DNA of 64,000 bases from Patescibacteria group bacterium (GCA_034520665.1 JAXHNJ010000002.1:179166-243165), one strand, 5' to 3'; positions 1,696 through 54,983 are shown, counted from the first letter of the stretch. Translations and numbers: made by a program. The notes: generated by a model from the letters alone, not told the origin.

Positions 1696-1912
1696 AAAAT
1701 TCTAAGCGGACCCGATCTCCCTTTGGGAGACGATCTTCTCCGTGACCCCACACTATATTTGCTTCTTTCACAAGTGCAAAGCCGACAAAAGAGATACTAA
1801 AATTCTAAGCGGGCCCGATCTCCCTTCGGGAGACGATCTTCTCCGTGACCCCACACTATATTTGCTTCGCTCATATGTTTGGGGCAAGCAGGGAGATATA
1901 CTAAAATTCTAA
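1696..1912. repeat. Two tandem ~103-bp units, each a degenerate copy of the 3' part of the adjacent tRNA-Asp gene plus its 3' flank
   Basis: Units begin at 1701 and 1804 and share 68 nt (tctaagcggacccgatctccc-TTTG/TTCG-gggagacgatcttctccgtgacc...). Versus the real gene at 1914-1988 they keep the acceptor 3' strand, the variable region and the anticodon 3' stem. The T-arm hairpin is replaced by a different 6-bp GC hairpin, TCTCCC-loop-GGGAGA. Confidence 0.75.
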
Positions 1913-19399: not shown

Positions 19400-19635
19400 C
19401 TCTCCTTAATAAAAAAACCCTGACTTCGGCAATTAAACAAGGGTTTTTAAAATTATTAAATCTTTCTACCGAAGATTTGTTATCTAAAAGGTGTCCTGGC
19501 TTACAGAGGATTGGCTCGTCAGCCCCTTCCCCTAAAAAAGAGTGGTTATGGCCGCCTGGCTTCTCTGCTTACAGTGACGGGATCGCGCCGGATTTGTTTT
19601 TGACTTAAAAGCAAAACGCACCGGTCTTCCCTTTT
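19400..19635 (-). promoter_or_regulatory. Cobalamin (B12) riboswitch with an intrinsic-terminator expression platform
   Basis: The minus strand reads ...GGTGCG...AAATCCGGCGCGATCCCGTCACTGTAAGCAGAGAAGCCAGGCGGCC.... This matches the cobalamin aptamer consensus (GAAUCCGG, the B12 box CCCGCCACUGUAA with one substitution, and AAGCCAGGA). A hairpin AACCCTTG...CAGGGTT plus a U7 tract is followed by the AAGGAG RBS of the DUF4430 gene. Confidence 0.8.
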
Positions 19636-19674
19636 TTTCTTAAAAATTTTATTTTTAAGAAAAATATTTAATTA

Positions 19675-20208
19675 TTAATATTCAATACCTTTTCTTGCTT
19701 TTAATCCCTGGTCAAAATAATGCTTGTTTTTATTCATGATAGTTACCAAATCTGCTAGCTTAATAATTTTATCATGAGCGTTTCTTCCCGTCAAAACAAT
19801 CTCTGTGGATAAAGAATTATTTTTTAAAAACTTAATGAGTCTATCTTTTTTTATTAAACCAAAATCAAGGGCCACATTAATTTCATCTAATATTACTAAA
19901 TTATATTTTTTATTTTTAATTTTTTTAATGGCATAGGCCAAGCCTTTTTCGGCTCTTTCAAAATCTTCTTTTTTTATTTTGCTCTTATCAATAAATTTAT
20001 GGCTACCAAATTGTTTAATTTCTAAATTATTAAATTTTTTTAAGGCCTTAATTTCACTATAATCTCCTTTTTTCATAAACTGTATAATCAGGACTCGAAA
20101 ACCAGCTCCTAAGGCCCTTAAAGCTAAGCCTAAAGCAGCTGTAGTTTTTCCCTTACCTTCTCCCGTATAAACTTGAATCATATTTAGCCTAATGAACAGG
20201 CTGACCAA
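19675..20208 (-). CDS. cobO: Cob(I)yrinic acid a,c-diamide / cob(I)alamin adenosyltransferase (CobO/BtuR family)
   Basis: IQVYTGEGKGKTTAALGLALRALGAGFRVLIIQFMKK is the BtuR P-loop signature. The start may be the internal ATG at 20181, directly after the nrdJ stop. Confidence 0.85.
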   Translation of the reverse strand: MVSLFIRLNMIQVYTGEGKGKTTAALGLALRALGAGFRVLIIQFMKKGDYSEIKALKKFNNLEIKQFGSHKFIDKSKIKKEDFERAEKGLAYAIKKIKNKKYNLVILDEINVALDFGLIKKDRLIKFLKNNSLSTEIVLTGRNAHDKIIKLADLVTIMNKNKHYFDQGLKARKGIEY

Positions 20209-36964: not shown

Positions 36965-37678
36965 TTATAAATTATATTCGGGTGAAATAAAATACTTCAT
37001 TTTATAAAATGGCCAAGCTCTTAGCCAAGCATAACCAACTATTTGATCTTTAATTATCGGGCCAATACTTCTTGAGTCAAGGCTGGAAGAACGATTATCT
37101 CCCAAGACATAATACTCGTTATTTTTTAGCCGGATAGTAATATTGCCTGAAGTTTTAGTATTTTTATCAAGATAATTTTCTTCTAAAATTTTTCCTTTGG
37201 AATCTGAATGGCTATAAACTTCCACTTTTCCTTCCTGAATGACAATTTTTTCACCGGGCAAACCAATAATTCTTTTAATAATATAACCGCCGGCTTTTTC
37301 TTTTTCATTTACCACCACCACATCCCCTCTTTCGGGCTGGGAAAAACGATAAGTTAATTCATTTATAATTAAATATTCATTATCATGAAAATTCGGTTCC
37401 ATAGAGGCCCCGCGCACATAAAAAGGCTGGATTAAAAAATAACGAACCGGAATAATTATAGCTAAGGAAATAACCACTACCTTTAAAACTTCAAAAATAA
37501 AAGAAACAAAAGACTTGGTAAAAGAAGGCAGGAATTCTTCCTTTTTTTGCAACTTAGTCAAACGACGAAAACCCGGCTTAATTTTTACCTTATTTTCTTG
37601 GGCTTCTTTTTCCGCTAAATTTTCTTTGGGTTGTTCTTTTTTTGTTGAATTTTTTTTGGTATTTTTTTTATTCGGCAT
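36965..37678 (-). CDS. lepB: Signal peptidase I
   Basis: ...VRGASMEPNF... carries the catalytic Ser, and GDNRSSSLDSR is box E. Confidence 0.9.
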   Translation of the reverse strand: MPNKKNTKKNSTKKEQPKENLAEKEAQENKVKIKPGFRRLTKLQKKEEFLPSFTKSFVSFIFEVLKVVVISLAIIIPVRYFLIQPFYVRGASMEPNFHDNEYLIINELTYRFSQPERGDVVVVNEKEKAGGYIIKRIIGLPGEKIVIQEGKVEVYSHSDSKGKILEENYLDKNTKTSGNITIRLKNNEYYVLGDNRSSSLDSRSIGPIIKDQIVGYAWLRAWPFYKMKYFISPEYNL

Positions 37679-37908
37679 AAAAATTTATATTTCTTTAAAA
37701 AACCTGGTGGGCCTAATAGGAGTTAAATCCCTCGATGCTACGCGGGAAAGGTTCTATGACCCTTTTAACTCTTTTAGTTTACTCTACCCTAGTAAAATGA
37801 CAAGTGAATATAAATGATATGGTGGACGATGAAGGACTTGTCACCCTACGGGTGATCCTCCGAAGGAGGAAACCAGAGACTTCTATCGCCCGCCTGCCAA
37901 AGCAGTCA

Positions 37909-37967
37909 TGGTCGCACCTGGACTTGAACCAGGGACTTCTATCGTGTGAGGATAGCGCTCTTACTCC
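37909..37967 (-). pseudogene. tRNA-like fragment with Val-CAC-like anticodon arm, T-arm and acceptor 3' strand. The 5' acceptor/D-arm is replaced by a GC hairpin element.
   Basis: The reverse complement reads GGAGTAAGAGCG-CTATC-CTCACAC-GATAG-AAGTC-CCTGG-TTCAAGT-CCAGG-TGCGACC-A. No matching 5' acceptor strand (GGTCGCA) is present. Instead it is preceded by the CGTCCCGC-TTT-GCGGGACG hairpin and GGATCC. Confidence 0.4.
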
Positions 37968-38033
37968 CGTCCCGCAAAGCGGGACGTGGATCCTCGAAGT
38001 TCTAGCGAAATCGAAGATTTCGATAACTTCGGG

Positions 38034-38105
38034 ACAGCTGAGCCCCGTCTCCCGCAGGGAGACGGGATCCCGATTTCCGACAAAGTCGGAACATCGGGAC
38101 TAATC
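38034..38105. repeat. 72-bp direct repeat, copy 1 of 2 (copy 2 at 38468-38539, one mismatch). Contains a perfect 10-bp-stem hairpin plus GGGATCC.
   Basis: acagctgagCCCCGTCTCCCgcaGGGAGACGGGatcccgatTTCCGACaaaGTCGGAAcatcgggactaatc occurs twice, 434 bp apart, bracketing the GIY-YIG gene and tRNA-Val. Confidence 0.85.
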
Positions 38106-38342
38106 GTTACATATTTTCTTAATTATTTTTGCGCTTTTCTTTTTTTTCAAAAATCTCTCTCTTTGATAAGCTGATTCTATATTAGGATATTTTTCTAATC
38201 TTACAAGAATGAAAGGCTGACGATGTTTTGTGGACTTGGATAATCCTTTATTATGTTCTGAAAAACGCTTATTAAAATTATTTGTTACCCCAATATAATA
38301 CTTAAAATCTTTTTGGCTTTTTAATATATAAACATAATACAT
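38100..38342 (-). CDS. GIY-YIG nuclease superfamily protein (80 aa)
   Basis: MYYVYILKSQKDFKYYIGVTNNFNKRFSEHNKG matches the GIY..YIG..R..EH motif. Confidence 0.8.
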   Translation of the reverse strand: MYYVYILKSQKDFKYYIGVTNNFNKRFSEHNKGLSKSTKHRQPFILVRLEKYPNIESAYQRERFLKKKKSAKIIKKICND

Positions 38343-38351
38343 ATTTTACTA

Positions 38352-38425
38352 TGGGCGCGATAGGACTTGAACCTATGACCTTACGGATGTGAACCGTACA
38401 CTCTGACCAGCTGAGCTACGCGCCC
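38352..38425 (-). tRNA. tRNA-Val (anticodon CAC)
   Basis: Reverse complement: GGGCGCG-TA-GCTC-AGCTGGTCA-GAGT-G-TACGG-TTCACAT-CCGTA-AGGTC-ATAGG-TTCAAGT-CCTAT-CGCGCCC-A. Confidence 0.85.
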
Positions 38426-38467
38426 CTAGTTCATCCTGACGAACAGACATAAAAAGTTTATTCTAAA

Positions 38468-38539
38468 ACAGCTGAGCCCCGTCTCCCGCAGGGAGACGGG
38501 ATCCCGATTTCCGATAAAGTCGGAACATCGGGACTAATC
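38468..38539. repeat. 72-bp direct repeat, copy 2 (see 38034-38105)
   Basis: Identical to copy 1 except gacaaag/gataaag. It lies just 5' (on the minus strand) of tRNA-Val. Confidence 0.85.
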
Positions 38540-39226
38540 ATCCACGAAAACGGAAACTAAATACATTTTTAAATCAATCTTTTGGCTAAAATAAACCAAA
38601 GATAGGCAAATTATAGCATAAAAAAAGAGCTAAATCAAATAAAAATTTTGCTTATTATATTTACTTTATTATTTTTTGTCATTTTTTTTAATATACATCA
38701 TCTTTTTATTATAACTGATAAGAATGGCATTAAAAATAGTAAGATACAAATTATTTTATAGCATTAAAACATAAGCGAAAGTTTATAAAGTTTTATTATT
38801 ATTAACCTATAATATTACTTACAATTTATTCAGGCCGTTATATAACCACATGAAATCAAAAAAACAACATAATTCAATATAAAATACTTGATCATCAAGA
38901 TTAACACTATTTGAGCTAGAAGTATAATAAATTATCGTTAAGATTTTCAGAAAATAATATAAAATTTTACTCCCAATTTTTATGAGTTATTATTTTATAA
39001 AAATTTAAATTACTATCCTTTTATAATTACTCTGTAATAAAAATTAATTTTATTTATTATATCATCAGAATTGTCAACACTACTATTTTTACCTACTGGT
39101 AAGAATTCAAAGTTAGCCACATATTTTCATAATTATGAGGGTCACTGTTTTAACTATTGCCTGGATTATATTTTTCTGGTGGTTTATTTTTTCTTTTGTC
39201 TTACGGCCGCCAAAAAGAAAATGTGT

Positions 39227-54083: not shown

Positions 54084-54190
54084 AATACTTGACCTTTGGT
54101 ATTATTTTTGTTAAGATAGATTGTAAATACTCTAACAAAAAAATAGCGTGGAGTGGGATCCTGTCCCTTTTCAAAGAAAGAGTAGTATAT

Positions 54191-54362
54191 TGAAAAACTT
54201 GAAAATATAAAGACATCATCAATCTTAACAACATCGCGGGGTGGAGTCCCGTCCCGTTGAGCGGGACGAGGATCCGCGTTATCATCATATAACGATGATA
54301 ACGGGACAGTGGTATATTGAAAAACTTGAAATAAAAAAAGATATCATCAATCTTAACAACAT
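54191..54362. repeat. Partial duplication of the tRNA-fMet 5' flank plus its first 12 nt, fused to GC hairpin elements
   Basis: gaaaaacttgaaa...atcatcaatcttaacaacatCGCGGGGTGGAG occurs at 54191-54245 and again at 54318-54375 (the real gene). The first copy continues into TCCCGTCCCG-TTGA-GCGGGACG-AGGATCC and a 10-bp-stem hairpin, CGTTATCATC-atataac-GATGATAACG. Confidence 0.75.
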
Positions 54363-54437
54363 CGCGGGGTGGAGCAGTGGCAGCTCGCCGGGCTCATAAT
54401 CCGGAGGTCGAGGGTTCGAATCCCTCCCCCGCAACCA
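54363..54437 (+). tRNA. tRNA-Met (anticodon CAT), initiator-like, CCA encoded
   Basis: CGCGGGG-TG-GAGC-AGTGGCA-GCTC-G-CCGGG-CTCATAA-TCCGG-AGGTC-GAGGG-TTCGAAT-CCCTC-CCCCGCA-A-CCA. The C1xA72 mismatch is typical of the bacterial initiator. Confidence 0.8.
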
Positions 54438-54462: not shown

Positions 54463-54906
54463 GCCAGGGTAGCTCTCGCCCGCTAGCGCCTGAGCGCAAG
54501 CGATGGCGAGCGGGTAGTTGATTAGAGCGTATATTAAATTTTAAAAGCTAAATTATACTACTATAAATTATAAGCCAGGGTAGCTCTCGCCCGCTAGCGC
54601 CTGAGCGCAAGCGATGGCGAGCGGGTAGTTGATTAGAGCGTATATTAAATTTTAAAAGCTAAATTATACTACTATAAATTATAAGCCAGGGTAGCTCTCG
54701 CCCGCTAGCGCCTGAGCGCAAGCGATGGCGAGCGGGTAGTTGATTAGAGCGTATATTAAATTTTAAAAGCTAAATTATACTACTATAAATTATAAGCCAG
54801 GGTAGCTCTCGCCCGCTAGCGCCTGAGCGCAAGCGATGGCGAGCGGGTAGTTGATTAGAGCGTATATTAAATTTTAAAAGCTAAATTATACTACTATAAA
54901 TTATAA
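54463..54906. repeat. Tandem array of four identical 111-bp units, each beginning with the first 13 nt of the downstream tRNA-Met gene
   Basis: Units start at 54463, 54574, 54685 and 54796. Each reads GCCAGGGTAGCTC + tcgcccgctagcgcctgagcgcaagcgatggcgagcgggtag + ttgattagagcg + a 40-nt AT-rich tail. A fifth unit at 54907 is the intact tRNA. Not CRISPR-like: there are no unique spacers. Confidence 0.9.
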
Positions 54907-54983
54907 GCCAGGGTAGCTCAGTTGGTTAGAGCACGGGACTCATAAGCCCGGGGTCGTGGGTTCGAATCCCACCCCTGGTACCA
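54907..54983 (+). tRNA. tRNA with CAT anticodon (elongator Met, or Ile2/lysidine type), CCA encoded
   Basis: GCCAGGG-TA-GCTC-AGTTGGTTA-GAGC-A-CGGGA-CTCATAA-GCCCG-GGGTC-GTGGG-TTCGAAT-CCCAC-CCCTGGT-A-CCA. Confidence 0.8.

Follow-up and report, generated by a model that had tools for sequence, protein, structure and literature searches.

A small GIY-YIG gene among duplicated, hairpin-interrupted tRNA-Val copies in a Patescibacteria group bacterium: a possible tRNA-dwelling cassette

Background

How does a tRNA gene come to be surrounded by broken copies of itself, split by GC hairpins and interleaved with a nuclease gene? The question is raised by an island within a stretch of 64,000 nucleotides from a Patescibacteria group bacterium (GCA_034520665.1 JAXHNJ010000002.1:179166-243165), indicated below, at its full length, as the window. 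The island contains a gene for an 80 amino acid GIY-YIG protein (gene G), an intact tRNA-Val(CAC) gene, partial tRNA-Val copies, and two copies of a double hairpin, H, composed of the hairpins hp1 and hp2. Related or metagenomic loci compared with the window are indicated by L-numbers (L001, L002, L022 and so on).

The reading preferred here, in which confidence and doubt are about balanced, is that the island is a much-used landing site of a selfish, tRNA-dwelling cassette carrying the nuclease gene G. The cassette family is widespread and combines a bare nuclease of the UPF0213 type, overlap with a tRNA gene, a duplicated tRNA end, and H located between tRNA positions 10 and 11 (G10|C11). 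Such a family is apparently undescribed: no published description of the arrangement was found in the full-text literature, whose coverage was incomplete, so that this is absence of evidence only.

Results and discussion

The island and its direct repeat

All features of the island are carried by the minus strand, in the order: a tRNA 5' fragment (T5), H, a D-stem, a 42-nt spacer, the working tRNA-Val, 9 nt, G, a second H, a D-stem, three tRNA-Val-like fragments (A, B and C) and lepB. A 72-nt direct repeat, bracketing a GIY-YIG gene and a tRNA-Val, had been reported in the original prediction. It is confirmed: the two copies (38034-38105 and 38468-38539, spacing 434 nt) are identical at 71 of 72 positions, without the substantial divergence that realignment might have revealed, and they enclose both the tRNA-Val(CAC) gene at 38352-38425, called by ARAGORN and Rfam, and the open reading frame (ORF) at 38100-38342, recognized by Pfam. 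Each copy is made up of tRNA positions 5-10, then H, then tRNA positions 10-18. The repeat is therefore a duplicated tRNA/H junction, and not the product of an arbitrary segmental duplication. Of the proposed segmental duplication followed by insertion, what holds is that G lies within an inserted, evidently mobile unit, flanked by copies of a duplicated junction; the duplicated piece is specifically a tRNA 5' fragment with H and a D-stem.

The upstream copy is preceded by an orphan tRNA-Val T5, GGATGATTAG (38534-38543), which, as read from the sequence, corresponds to tRNA positions 1-10 and ends in TAG (U8-A9-G10) directly before H. It fits the T5|H layout of the 119 instances of H described below. 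The repeat copy itself includes GATTAG, hp1 (38502-38533), hp2 (38478-38501) and GCTCAGCTGT (38468-38477), the latter, present in both copies, being a D-stem with the start of the D-loop; it is 99% identical to the other copy. An AT-rich spacer of 42 nt (38426-38467), similar in length to the 22-106 nt spacers of the loci indicated as "type C", separates this hairpin-tagged 5' fragment from the working tRNA-Val(CAC) gene (Rfam tRNA, 69.6 bits), which is intact, does not encode CCA and is nearly identical, by a hand count of ~71/74, to the orthologous tRNA-Val of L002.

The ATG of G is found 9 nt past the 3' end of the working tRNA; its last codons, AAC GAT TAG, form a tRNA-like 5' fragment, where the TAG stop corresponds to tRNA positions 8-10. 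Here begins the downstream repeat copy: GATTAG, overlapping the end of the ORF, hp1 (38068-38099), hp2 (38044-38067) and GCTCAGCTGT (38034-38043). In this copy H is placed exactly at G10|C11 of a dead tRNA-Val copy.

At least eight GC hairpins are present in 37,700-38,560, where at least five had been claimed; all those originally named are found at their places. hp1, with sequence TCCCGAT-G-TTCCGAC-TTT-GTCGGAA-ATCGGGA inside each 72-nt copy, and a nested 42-nt hairpin (hp3, 37992-38033) were both missing from that list. As DNA, the hairpins are more stable than shuffled sequences (z from -3.0 to -7.2); the downstream repeat copy, the only one folded (the other being identical at 71 of 72 positions), scores -25.6 kcal/mol (z = -6.9), and the RNA fold of the whole 283-nt stretch has a z of -7.5 against shuffles. 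The hairpin CCCGTCTCCC...GGGAGACGGG does not occur elsewhere in the 64 kb.

The GGATCC sequences which adjoin the hairpins were considered as a possible meaningful site and rejected. They are not over-represented in the window (8 observed versus 8.4 expected); their local clustering is a by-product of hairpin ends, because the inserted hairpins start with TC(C) and end with (G)GA, and neighbours join as GGA|TCC.

The GIY-YIG gene

Residues 1-71 of the protein encoded by G match PF01541 with E=2e-17 and 63.7 bits (cut-off 22.6), and G is accordingly a member of the GIY-YIG superfamily. Across 22 homologs no variation is seen at Y5, Y16, G18, R26, H30 and E62; the Tyr, Tyr, Arg, His and Glu among them, taken to be catalytic as in active GIY-YIG enzymes, are thus intact. 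Among solved structures, G is similar to 1ZG2 (BH0048, E=4.4e-6) and 1YWL (EF2693, E=7.9e-5), both belonging to UPF0213, whose entries in the Protein Data Bank are titled as hypothetical proteins only. At 80 amino acids, G is shorter than these UPF0213 chains (96-107 aa). Because of its single domain, its size and this similarity, G belongs to the UPF0213/YhbQ/YazA class of stand-alone URI proteins (~80-110 aa). YhbQ and YazA are grouped in a review with the structure-selective nuclease Slx1 (PMC7017083), and G is accordingly designated as being of the YhbQ/Slx1 type. No mention of tRNA linkage or mobility of UPF0213 genes was found in the literature searched.

G is composed of the catalytic domain only, with no DNA-binding domain, and does not qualify as a homing endonuclease recognizing a long site. 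Its score against TIGR01453, the model of group I intron endonucleases, is 22.1 bits, below the cut-off of 56, and none of the NCBIfam models scores above its cut-off. Two other identities were tried and rejected: a defence system, for which PADLOC gave partial matches only (E=0.005), and a phage origin, for which the only indications are distant matches (~40% identity) to annotated GIY-YIG genes of Rhizobium phages and the occurrence of TAG followed by the double hairpin in two IMG/VR contigs classified as viral (L208 and L209).

Recurrence at tRNA genes

The arrangement recurs at many tRNA genes and in many genomes. A protein search gave 42 relatives of G, ten of which were fetched by exact identity: they are found in ten different neighbourhoods, close to rplS, a gene of the tyrosine recombinase/integrase family, rplL, lytR, coaE/thrS (in a metagenome-assembled genome, MAG, of Dehalococcoidia), a NUDIX gene, recG, and others. 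In nine out of ten, G is located at most ~100 nt from a tRNA gene on the same strand. In the other, L214, it is found between tRNA-Gly genes ~180 and ~410 nt away; at this locus (L214:1485-1800) the G homolog lies inside a perfect 15-nt inverted repeat, CCCCCCACCACTTTT ... AAAAGTGGTGGGGGG, with the whole ORF as the loop of a large hairpin.

Four loci (L087, L081, L082, L085) feature an intact tRNA-Val, a gap of 0-10 nt, G, H, and a second tRNA-Val from position 11 on. In L087 the end of the ORF, TTG GAC GAT TAG, is exactly tRNA positions 1-10; in L117 the stop codon of G is U8-A9-G10 of the intact tRNA-Ile which comes next downstream. L095 has the same layout as the window: the host tRNA-Val(GAC) is split at G10|C11 by an insert in which H and G are followed by another, intact tRNA-Val(GAC) allele and by a further copy of H. 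In the Dehalococcoidia MAG (L210), G is found between two 5' parts of pseudo-tRNA-Val(GAC), where a small hairpin replaces the anticodon arm, followed by an intact tRNA-Val(GAC); the hairpins of this cassette are other than those of the H family. In L218 a tRNA-Ser is followed by G and by a tRNA-Ser T-arm remnant with T-loop hairpins, while in L212, L214, L217 and L219 G adjoins Arg, Ser or Gly tRNA genes. Whatever tRNA parts are duplicated at the flanks, one copy always stays intact. No integrase or recombinase gene is present inside the element: G is the sole ORF between the repeats with a protein-family match.

The double hairpin

H, whose core is ARTCGGGATCCCGAYT, was searched for in metagenomes by the pattern TAG + TCCCGA, 8-34 nt, then TCGGGATCCCG. 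At least 120 loci matched, many of them on short contigs, and 119 non-redundant instances were extracted from the matches listed; the counts given below for H refer to these listed instances. H is present in two copies in the 64-kb window, both at the island, and in one or two copies per contig elsewhere.

The foot TCCCGA/TCGGGA is fixed. hp1 features a covarying seventh pair, a bulged G (G8) conserved in at least 90% of sequences, and a variable inner stem. In 30 sequences of equal length, 97.2% of the hp1 cells are paired, versus 84.3% in shuffled and 26-55% in slid alignments, with compensatory changes in all seven pairs outside the search pattern. hp2 contains a mismatch or bulge, a bulged C by reading of individual sequences, located on the side opposite to that of hp1, and for this reason H looks alike on both strands: it is two-fold symmetric, with a 16-nt palindrome at its centre. 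As hairpins with unpaired bases, hp1 and hp2 have the structure typical of the IS200/IS605 type or of REP sequences with RAYT. The inner hairpin of hp1 in the window (38068-38099; GAC-TTT-GTC) is exactly reverse-complementary to that of hp2 in L087:730-761 (GAC-AAA-GTC), with a flipped loop, as when a palindrome inverts or a symmetric element inserts in either orientation.

The five nucleotides following H, which are outside the search pattern, are CTCAG in 47 of the 119 listed instances, and CTCAA, CTCAT or TTCAG in about 15 more; CTCAG is what many tRNAs have, as D-stem and D-loop, after G10. G abuts H in 27 listed instances, at Val, Phe, Thr, Lys, Met, Ile and Ala tRNA genes. In 15 of them G ends at TAG|H (Val, Phe, Thr, Lys, Met). 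In 11, it starts, as judged from the cases inspected, 9-27 nt after H|CTCAG, with an intact tRNA sharing the same first ten nt ~275 nt downstream (Val, Ile, Thr, Ala, Lys, Met); in one, G is present on both sides. Another 22 listed instances, without G, are composed of T5, H, a short spacer and an intact tRNA with the same first ten nt (Ile, Val, Ala, Thr, Arg, Lys, Asn). For 20, a D-arm-like flank is found in an unassigned context, and 50 have no tRNA-like flank.

In 25 of 118 listed cases, versus 2.6 expected, a repeat of the sequence that runs up to TAG is found on the downstream side of H, usually in the form of ten tRNA nucleotides with 1-4 leader nt. Compared with a miniature inverted-repeat element of the cut-and-paste type, for which terminal inverted repeats and a target duplication of constant length would be expected, H has inverted repeats at its feet (TCCCGA/TCGGGA) and 7-14 upstream nt recurring downstream in those 25 cases, at a distance of 0-283 nt; both distance and length are variable.

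H is also found between G24 and C25 (GGTTAGAG|H|C), in L117:4934-5000 and in L092 near 6315, the D-stem position which mirrors G10|C11. An enzyme with two-fold symmetry, acting on the palindrome of the D-arm, would be expected to produce such insertions.

The ancestral site

The best hisS relatives place the genome in the Patescibacteria (CPR). The site was compared in relatives by using 71 hisS loci with enough upstream sequence. A tRNA-Val(CAC) is found upstream of lepB-hisS, on the same strand, in 19 of the 71. For 17 out of the 19, 670-950 nt separate its 3' end from hisS, so that the tRNA immediately precedes lepB. These 17 compact loci are the empty sites in relatives lacking the GIY-YIG gene which the original prediction led one to look for. 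In the window the distance between tRNA and hisS is ~1,390 nt, in L027 1,380 nt: both are expanded by ~650 nt and both contain G. At the hisS locus G is present in the window, in L001 and in L027, and absent from the remaining hisS loci, a presence/absence polymorphism at an orthologous site as is characteristic of free-standing homing endonuclease genes.

L001 is the closest relative, with a histidyl-tRNA synthetase 75% identical. There (L001:1-640) two H-interrupted tRNA-Val(CAC) copies flank G; ARAGORN finds no tRNA in the contig, which begins inside the first copy.

Remnants between G and lepB

The dead tRNA-Val copy that follows G contains, in its D-loop, two hairpins besides H (37968-38033; DNA fold -18.7 kcal/mol, z = -4.8): the nested hp3 and hp4 (37968-37986; CGTCCCGC-TTT-GCGGGACG). 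In the RNA fold the D-stem GCUC/GAGC closes around both. The copy continues with fragment A (37909-37967), which resembles tRNA-Val(CAC) from the D-loop to the 3' end. Its acceptor 3' strand is TGCGACC (allele GGTCGCA). Fragment A is not recognized as a tRNA: the Rfam match (37909-37968) scores 24.2 bits versus a threshold of 29 and leaves the D-arm outside, the acceptor strands are unpaired, and ARAGORN makes no call. The T-arm and acceptor are nearly identical to those of an H-linked copy in L027, and the allele is found in L022 as well. The suggestion that a hairpin had replaced the 5' third of this Val-CAC-like sequence does not hold, as positions 1-10 and the 5' strand of the D-stem persist, and four inserted hairpins separate these 5' parts from the remainder. 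As for the "chimeric tRNA-like pseudogene", it proves to be a tRNA copy with four interruptions, and belongs to a set of three nested remnants derived from different tRNA-Val alleles.

A junction motif, TGACTGCTTTGGCAGGCGGG (37889-37908), composed of the small hairpin CTGC-TTTG-GCAG and GCGGG, is found ahead of the next remnant; it is also located ahead of 3' remnants in L001 (as CCTGCCTGTGGCAGGCAGG) and L022 (as GCTTTGGCAGGCGG). Fragment B (37820-37888) is a tRNA-Val 3' remnant from the anticodon-stem 3' strand (CGATAGAAGTC) on, with hp5 (37856-37870) and hp6 (37841-37855) in the T-loop, and ends in ATCGTCCACCA (allele GGACGAT), an acceptor also found in L087, L081 and the second copy of L001. 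Fragments A and B share an 18-nt direct repeat (D8), corresponding to tRNA positions ~39-56. Each acceptor strand of the allele GGGTGAT, found in L001, L002 and L082, agrees with hp6 (TCACCC-GTA-GGGTGA) at six of its seven bases.

In fragment C (37705-37764) a degraded T-arm and acceptor are left, and an imperfect hairpin of 26 nt occupies the T-loop; its end, GGCCCACCA, is found 27 nt before the start codon of lepB. Its 3' portion aligns with the tRNA-Val of L002, with which it shares the T-arm variant AACTCCTAT (~17/22 by hand count), and its position is that of the tRNA in the 17 compact relatives. Of the three remnants, fragment C is read as the oldest, left from the 3' end of the tRNA-Val that lay ancestrally beside lepB. 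Fragments B (37820-37830) and C (37705-37716) end in an encoded CCA, while the working tRNA-Val gene has none. lepB itself (36965-37678, minus strand; signal peptidase I, Peptidase_S26, 2.6e-40) is a conserved downstream neighbour, by which the ancestral tRNA-Val site can be recognized, and lies outside the element.

The alleles are mosaic: the acceptor of fragment A is that of L022 and L027, the acceptor of B that of L087, L081 and L001, the T-arm of C that of L002. Since fragments A and B carry acceptor stems of other alleles, while C sits at the site of the compact relatives, the site is taken to have been filled by several events, some of them bringing foreign tRNA-Val sequence.

Upstream of the island, a promoter-like site (38610-38638, minus strand; TTGATT-17 nt-TATAAT, with TG before the -10) was found by a consensus scan, with 10 matches out of 12. 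It is located ~65 nt upstream of the orphan T5 and is the probable start of a transcript through the whole island; a scan of 37600-38800 gave no terminator-like site. By Rfam at gathering thresholds, only five tRNAs and a cobalamin riboswitch are found in the whole window, and at E<10 the stretch 37400-38800 gives no relevant match, and no intron or ribozyme. Within the reach of Rfam, the island is therefore neither a tmRNA nor an RNase P RNA, and large ornate RNAs, ribozymes and introns are excluded as well.

A possible mechanism

In the model favoured here, G would be lodged between two tandem copies of its target tRNA, starting a few nt after one and ending in the first ten nt of the next, with U8-A9-G10 as stop codon. 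G would probably be transcribed from the tRNA promoter and released by tRNA processing, because the gaps of 0-10 nt between tRNA and ATG leave no room for a promoter and the stop lies inside the next tRNA. One tRNA copy would always be disabled, by H exactly at G10|C11, while the other stays intact, so that the host would lose nothing essential.

The protein may recognize DNA structure and cut tRNA genes accordingly, its substrate being H itself or else the hairpins or cruciforms into which the tRNA gene folds. The break could be repaired by copying the cassette-bearing allele, or by a single crossover on tRNA homology, giving tRNA-G-tRNA; H would then kill the redundant copy and interrupt the direct repeat that could otherwise loop the cassette out. 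At the locus described here, the ancestral tRNA-Val(CAC) beside lepB would have been struck several times, each event shifting the working copy upstream and leaving a remnant (C, B and A, in this order). The remnants may later have gained further hairpins at unpaired cloverleaf positions, and the latest event would have duplicated the junction of T5, H and D-stem, giving rise to the 72-nt repeat around tRNA and G.

Several points weigh against this model. Sequence-specific homing of the I-TevI or SegB kind is unlikely for an 80-aa protein devoid of a DNA-binding domain; SegB-type enzymes are presumably larger than G and provided with such a domain. The intact neighbouring tRNA still has TAGCTCAG, and this motif alone cannot therefore be the target. 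A comparison of the window with L001 shows 100% identity for hp1 and for the anticodon arm of the dead copy, but only ~75% for G, a hint at a constraint that the model leaves unexplained. Hairpin-tagged tRNA fragments are found at loci free of G, including those of tRNA-Asp and of both tRNAs-Met in the window, and L002, L022 and L033. The requirement for TAG in the scan biases the set of H toward tRNA positions 8-10. Of the listed H instances, 42% have no tRNA-like flank, and G adjoins only 23%; because H is often found without G or a tRNA-like flank, it may be an independent element.

A stronger form of the model appears doubtful. G and H would together be an unrecognized, structure-directed mobile element, in which a minimal Slx1-like nuclease acts on tRNA genes folded as hairpins or cloverleaf cruciforms and settles between two tRNA copies, H splits the host copy permanently at G10|C11, and the cell becomes addicted to the travelling copy of an essential tRNA. 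Precise loss of the cassette by recombination between two H copies would leave only a dead, H-interrupted tRNA, which would explain why none of the H-interrupted tRNAs lacking G came out as complete when H was deleted from the sequence (the splice test reported below).

Alternative explanations

The independence of H is the starting point of an alternative which, although unlikely on the whole, could be compatible with the favoured reading of G. All hairpins, H included, would be miniature elements, similar to REP/REPIN, to IS200/IS605 derivatives or to mitochondrial double hairpins, moved by a single-strand transposase, acting in trans, to unpaired positions of tRNA-like DNA; G would be a hitch-hiker creating redundant tRNA copies, the only ones in which hairpins survive, hits in a single working copy being lethal. 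Besides the absence of G from the neighbourhood of 77% of the listed H instances and of a tRNA-like flank from 42%, the structure of H is in line with this explanation: it features bulged bases and strict stem covariation, which are typical of folded single strands recognized by proteins. At non-tRNA sites, moreover, the 7-9 nt preceding H recur a few nt after it, like a target duplication (L170, L178, L138), and different hairpin families are found in D-, anticodon- and T-loops. Yet no transposase candidate, HUH (Y1) included, was noticed beside the inspected loci, although these were not searched systematically, and the copy number of H, one or two per contig, is low. In 27 of the listed cases TAG|H and H|CTCAG are found at fixed short distances from the stop or start of G, and the origin of tRNA-G-tRNA is left unexplained.

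Serial integration by tyrosine recombinases at tRNA attachment (att) sites is improbable, too, and somewhat more so. The fragments would be attL/attR remnants, whose interiors have been deleted, and G a leftover cargo. Direct repeats of tRNA parts flank the insert (the 72-nt repeat, D8, remnants A-C), and the remnants are stacked away from the working copy: repeated tRNA parts with stacked remnants are what integration at tRNA genes classically leaves behind. The anticodon loop or T-loop contains several of the break points, and in L081 the gene of the tyrosine recombinase/integrase family lies just upstream of tRNA-Arg, tRNA-Val and G. However, no recombinase ORF is found between the repeats in the window, L001, L087, L095 and L117, and the units measure 100-450 nt. 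Many of the duplications concern the tRNA 5' end with 1-4 leader nt, and not the 3' end, and the same small gene G recurs in place of a varied cargo.

There is very little probability that the fragments are retro-copies, i.e. tRNA halves or fragments reverse-transcribed and inserted beside their own genes. The boundaries of the duplications do coincide with mature tRNA ends, the anticodon is precisely the starting point of the tRNA-Asp fragments described below, and a CCA which the working gene does not encode closes fragments B and C. But the 5' duplications carry 1-4 leader nt, CCA is anyway encoded in many alleles of the CPR, and no reverse transcriptase is linked to these loci.

Equally remote is a benefit to the host, with tandem duplications of tRNA leader and trailer and their stable hairpins acting as processing signals, stabilizers or terminators of tRNA operons and G as a housekeeping nuclease. 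The hairpins are very stable, and every element has the orientation of the tRNA and probably belongs to one transcript with it; against this, none of the hairpins is terminator-like with a T-run, G is patchy at the orthologous site (three related loci), alleles are mosaic and foreign, and the foot of H is constant across unrelated tRNA genes and lineages.

An intron nature of the hairpins, by which they would be spliced from the transcripts of functional tRNA genes, is scarcely credible and was rejected by the splice test and by inspection: although H is located at one precise tRNA position, and in L087 the ten nt before H and the sequence after it would give perfect D-stem and acceptor pairing, deletion of H yields a tRNA recognized by ARAGORN in only 6 of the 119 listed instances, for at least four of these six the same tRNA is also present, intact, upstream of G (the contigs of L001 and L121 end too early to tell), most H-bearing copies are truncated or contain further inserts, the acceptor strands of the interrupted copy in the window are unpaired, and Rfam finds no intron or ribozyme in the stretch scanned at E<10.

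Comparison with known systems

Free-standing GIY-YIG homing genes, such as SegB of T4, are found in phage tRNA clusters (PMC2330249): as here, a GIY-YIG gene, with no intron, lies among tRNA genes and is inherited with flanking tRNA sequence. G differs in being a bare, 80-aa catalytic domain of the UPF0213 type, located on a bacterial chromosome, overlapping the tRNA and flanked by duplicated tRNA parts and hairpins. In the case of Allomyces atp6, associated with Paquin, Laforest and Lang 1994, a mobile endonuclease ORF of fungal mitochondria is said to bring a replacement copy of the end of the invaded gene. ORFs of this type are similar to the cassette, as they carry their own copy of part of the target, a working hybrid gene stays in place and the displaced part becomes an adjacent pseudogene. 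There, however, the target is a protein-coding gene of an organelle, while here it is a bacterial tRNA gene, of which either the 5' or the 3' part is duplicated and the spare is disabled by a hairpin.

Integrative elements insert into tRNA genes and restore them. They share with the cassette the tRNA target, the flanking direct repeats of a tRNA part, the preserved working gene and the stacked remnants. The cassette, in contrast, has no internal integrase, its units measure 0.1-0.45 kb, the duplicated end is often the 5' one, and break points are also found at G10|C11 and in the D-loop.

For H, a comparison can be made with REP/REPIN sequences and their RAYT, palindromes derived from IS200/IS605, and attC sites of integrons: these are hairpins with extrahelical bases, recognized as folded single strands and inserted by a short specific sequence. 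H differs from them as a direct doublet with a palindromic centre, not an inverted one; its copy number is apparently low, and neither a HUH transposase nor an integron integrase is linked to it. Hairpin and double-hairpin elements of mitochondria are short, GC-biased and apparently mobile, with one or two hairpins, conserved stems and variable loops, and occur in tandem; they are organellar, avoid structurally important parts of genes, and, in fungi, the double-hairpin elements are not removed from transcripts (PMC2800124). Unlike them, H is bacterial, with the fixed foot TCCCGA/TCGGGA, bulged bases, two-fold symmetry and a strong preference for tRNA position 10/11.

If the favoured reading is correct, at least one branch of the tiny, stand-alone UPF0213 proteins would acquire a context, as selfish residents of tRNA genes, and the single-copy tRNA genes of reduced genomes would be arenas of repeated invasion, giving rise to foreign or mosaic alleles, pseudo-tRNAs and tandem arrays. 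Together with the 80-aa nuclease, the ~60-nt double hairpin, whose insertion point is defined, would also be a compact system for the study of structure-directed DNA cleavage and insertion. Even if the descriptive part alone holds, a useful annotation rule is obtained for Patescibacteria and some Chloroflexota, since such arrays confuse annotation: in L001, for example, no tRNA is called by ARAGORN.

Other hairpin-tagged tRNA fragments

Hairpin-tagged partial copies are found at four of the five tRNA genes of the window, and the phenomenon is thus wider than the island. Throughout, break or insertion points are tRNA ends or unpaired cloverleaf positions: 10/11, D-loop, 26/27, anticodon loop, variable loop and T-loop.

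Downstream of tRNA-Asp (1913-1988), two units of ~103 nt are located at 1700-1905 (minus strand), each composed of a tRNA-Asp 3' fragment starting exactly at the anticodon GTC. In these fragments the T-arm is replaced by TCTCCC-GAA/AAA-GGGAGA, a stem repeating the anticodon stem of the same tRNA, and the trailer TAGAATTTT follows each copy. A stem repeating a tRNA stem is also seen in hp6, which reproduces the acceptor stem of allele GGGTGAT. Because some hairpin stems repeat tRNA stems in this way, some of the hairpins may arise by fold-back copying instead of insertion.

Upstream of the elongator tRNA-Met (54907-54983), 4.1 perfect copies of a 111-nt unit are found at 54463-54919 (plus strand; Tandem Repeats Finder score 914, 100% matches). 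The unit includes tRNA positions 1-13, a 40-nt GC hairpin insert, positions 14-26 and an AT-rich, promoter-like spacer. Similarly, two units of ~125 nt, one of them degenerate, lie upstream of the initiator tRNA-Met (54363-54437), at 54150-54362 (plus strand); the better-kept one is composed of CGCGGGGTGGAG (positions 1-12), two hairpins, CAGTGG (positions 13-18) and a spacer.

A nested arrangement, without a GIY-YIG gene, is found in a Kerfeldbacteria relative (L022:4750-5170), where an intact tRNA-Val of allele GGCCACT lies inside the split halves of allele GGTCGCA. The outermost layer is formed by a GGCCACT 5' fragment with a hairpin and a GGCCACT 3' fragment with a hairpin in place of the T-arm, and the flanks of the inner tRNA can pair (CCCGCC/GGCGGG). 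This nested tRNA, and hp6, where the 3' acceptor, a loop and the 5' acceptor of one allele follow each other, suggested a permuted or split tRNA; the idea was dropped, as intact ordinary copies are present and the pieces in the window do not complete one another.

The cobalamin riboswitch of the window (19469-19679, minus strand; RF00174, 72.9 bits) is unrelated to the island.

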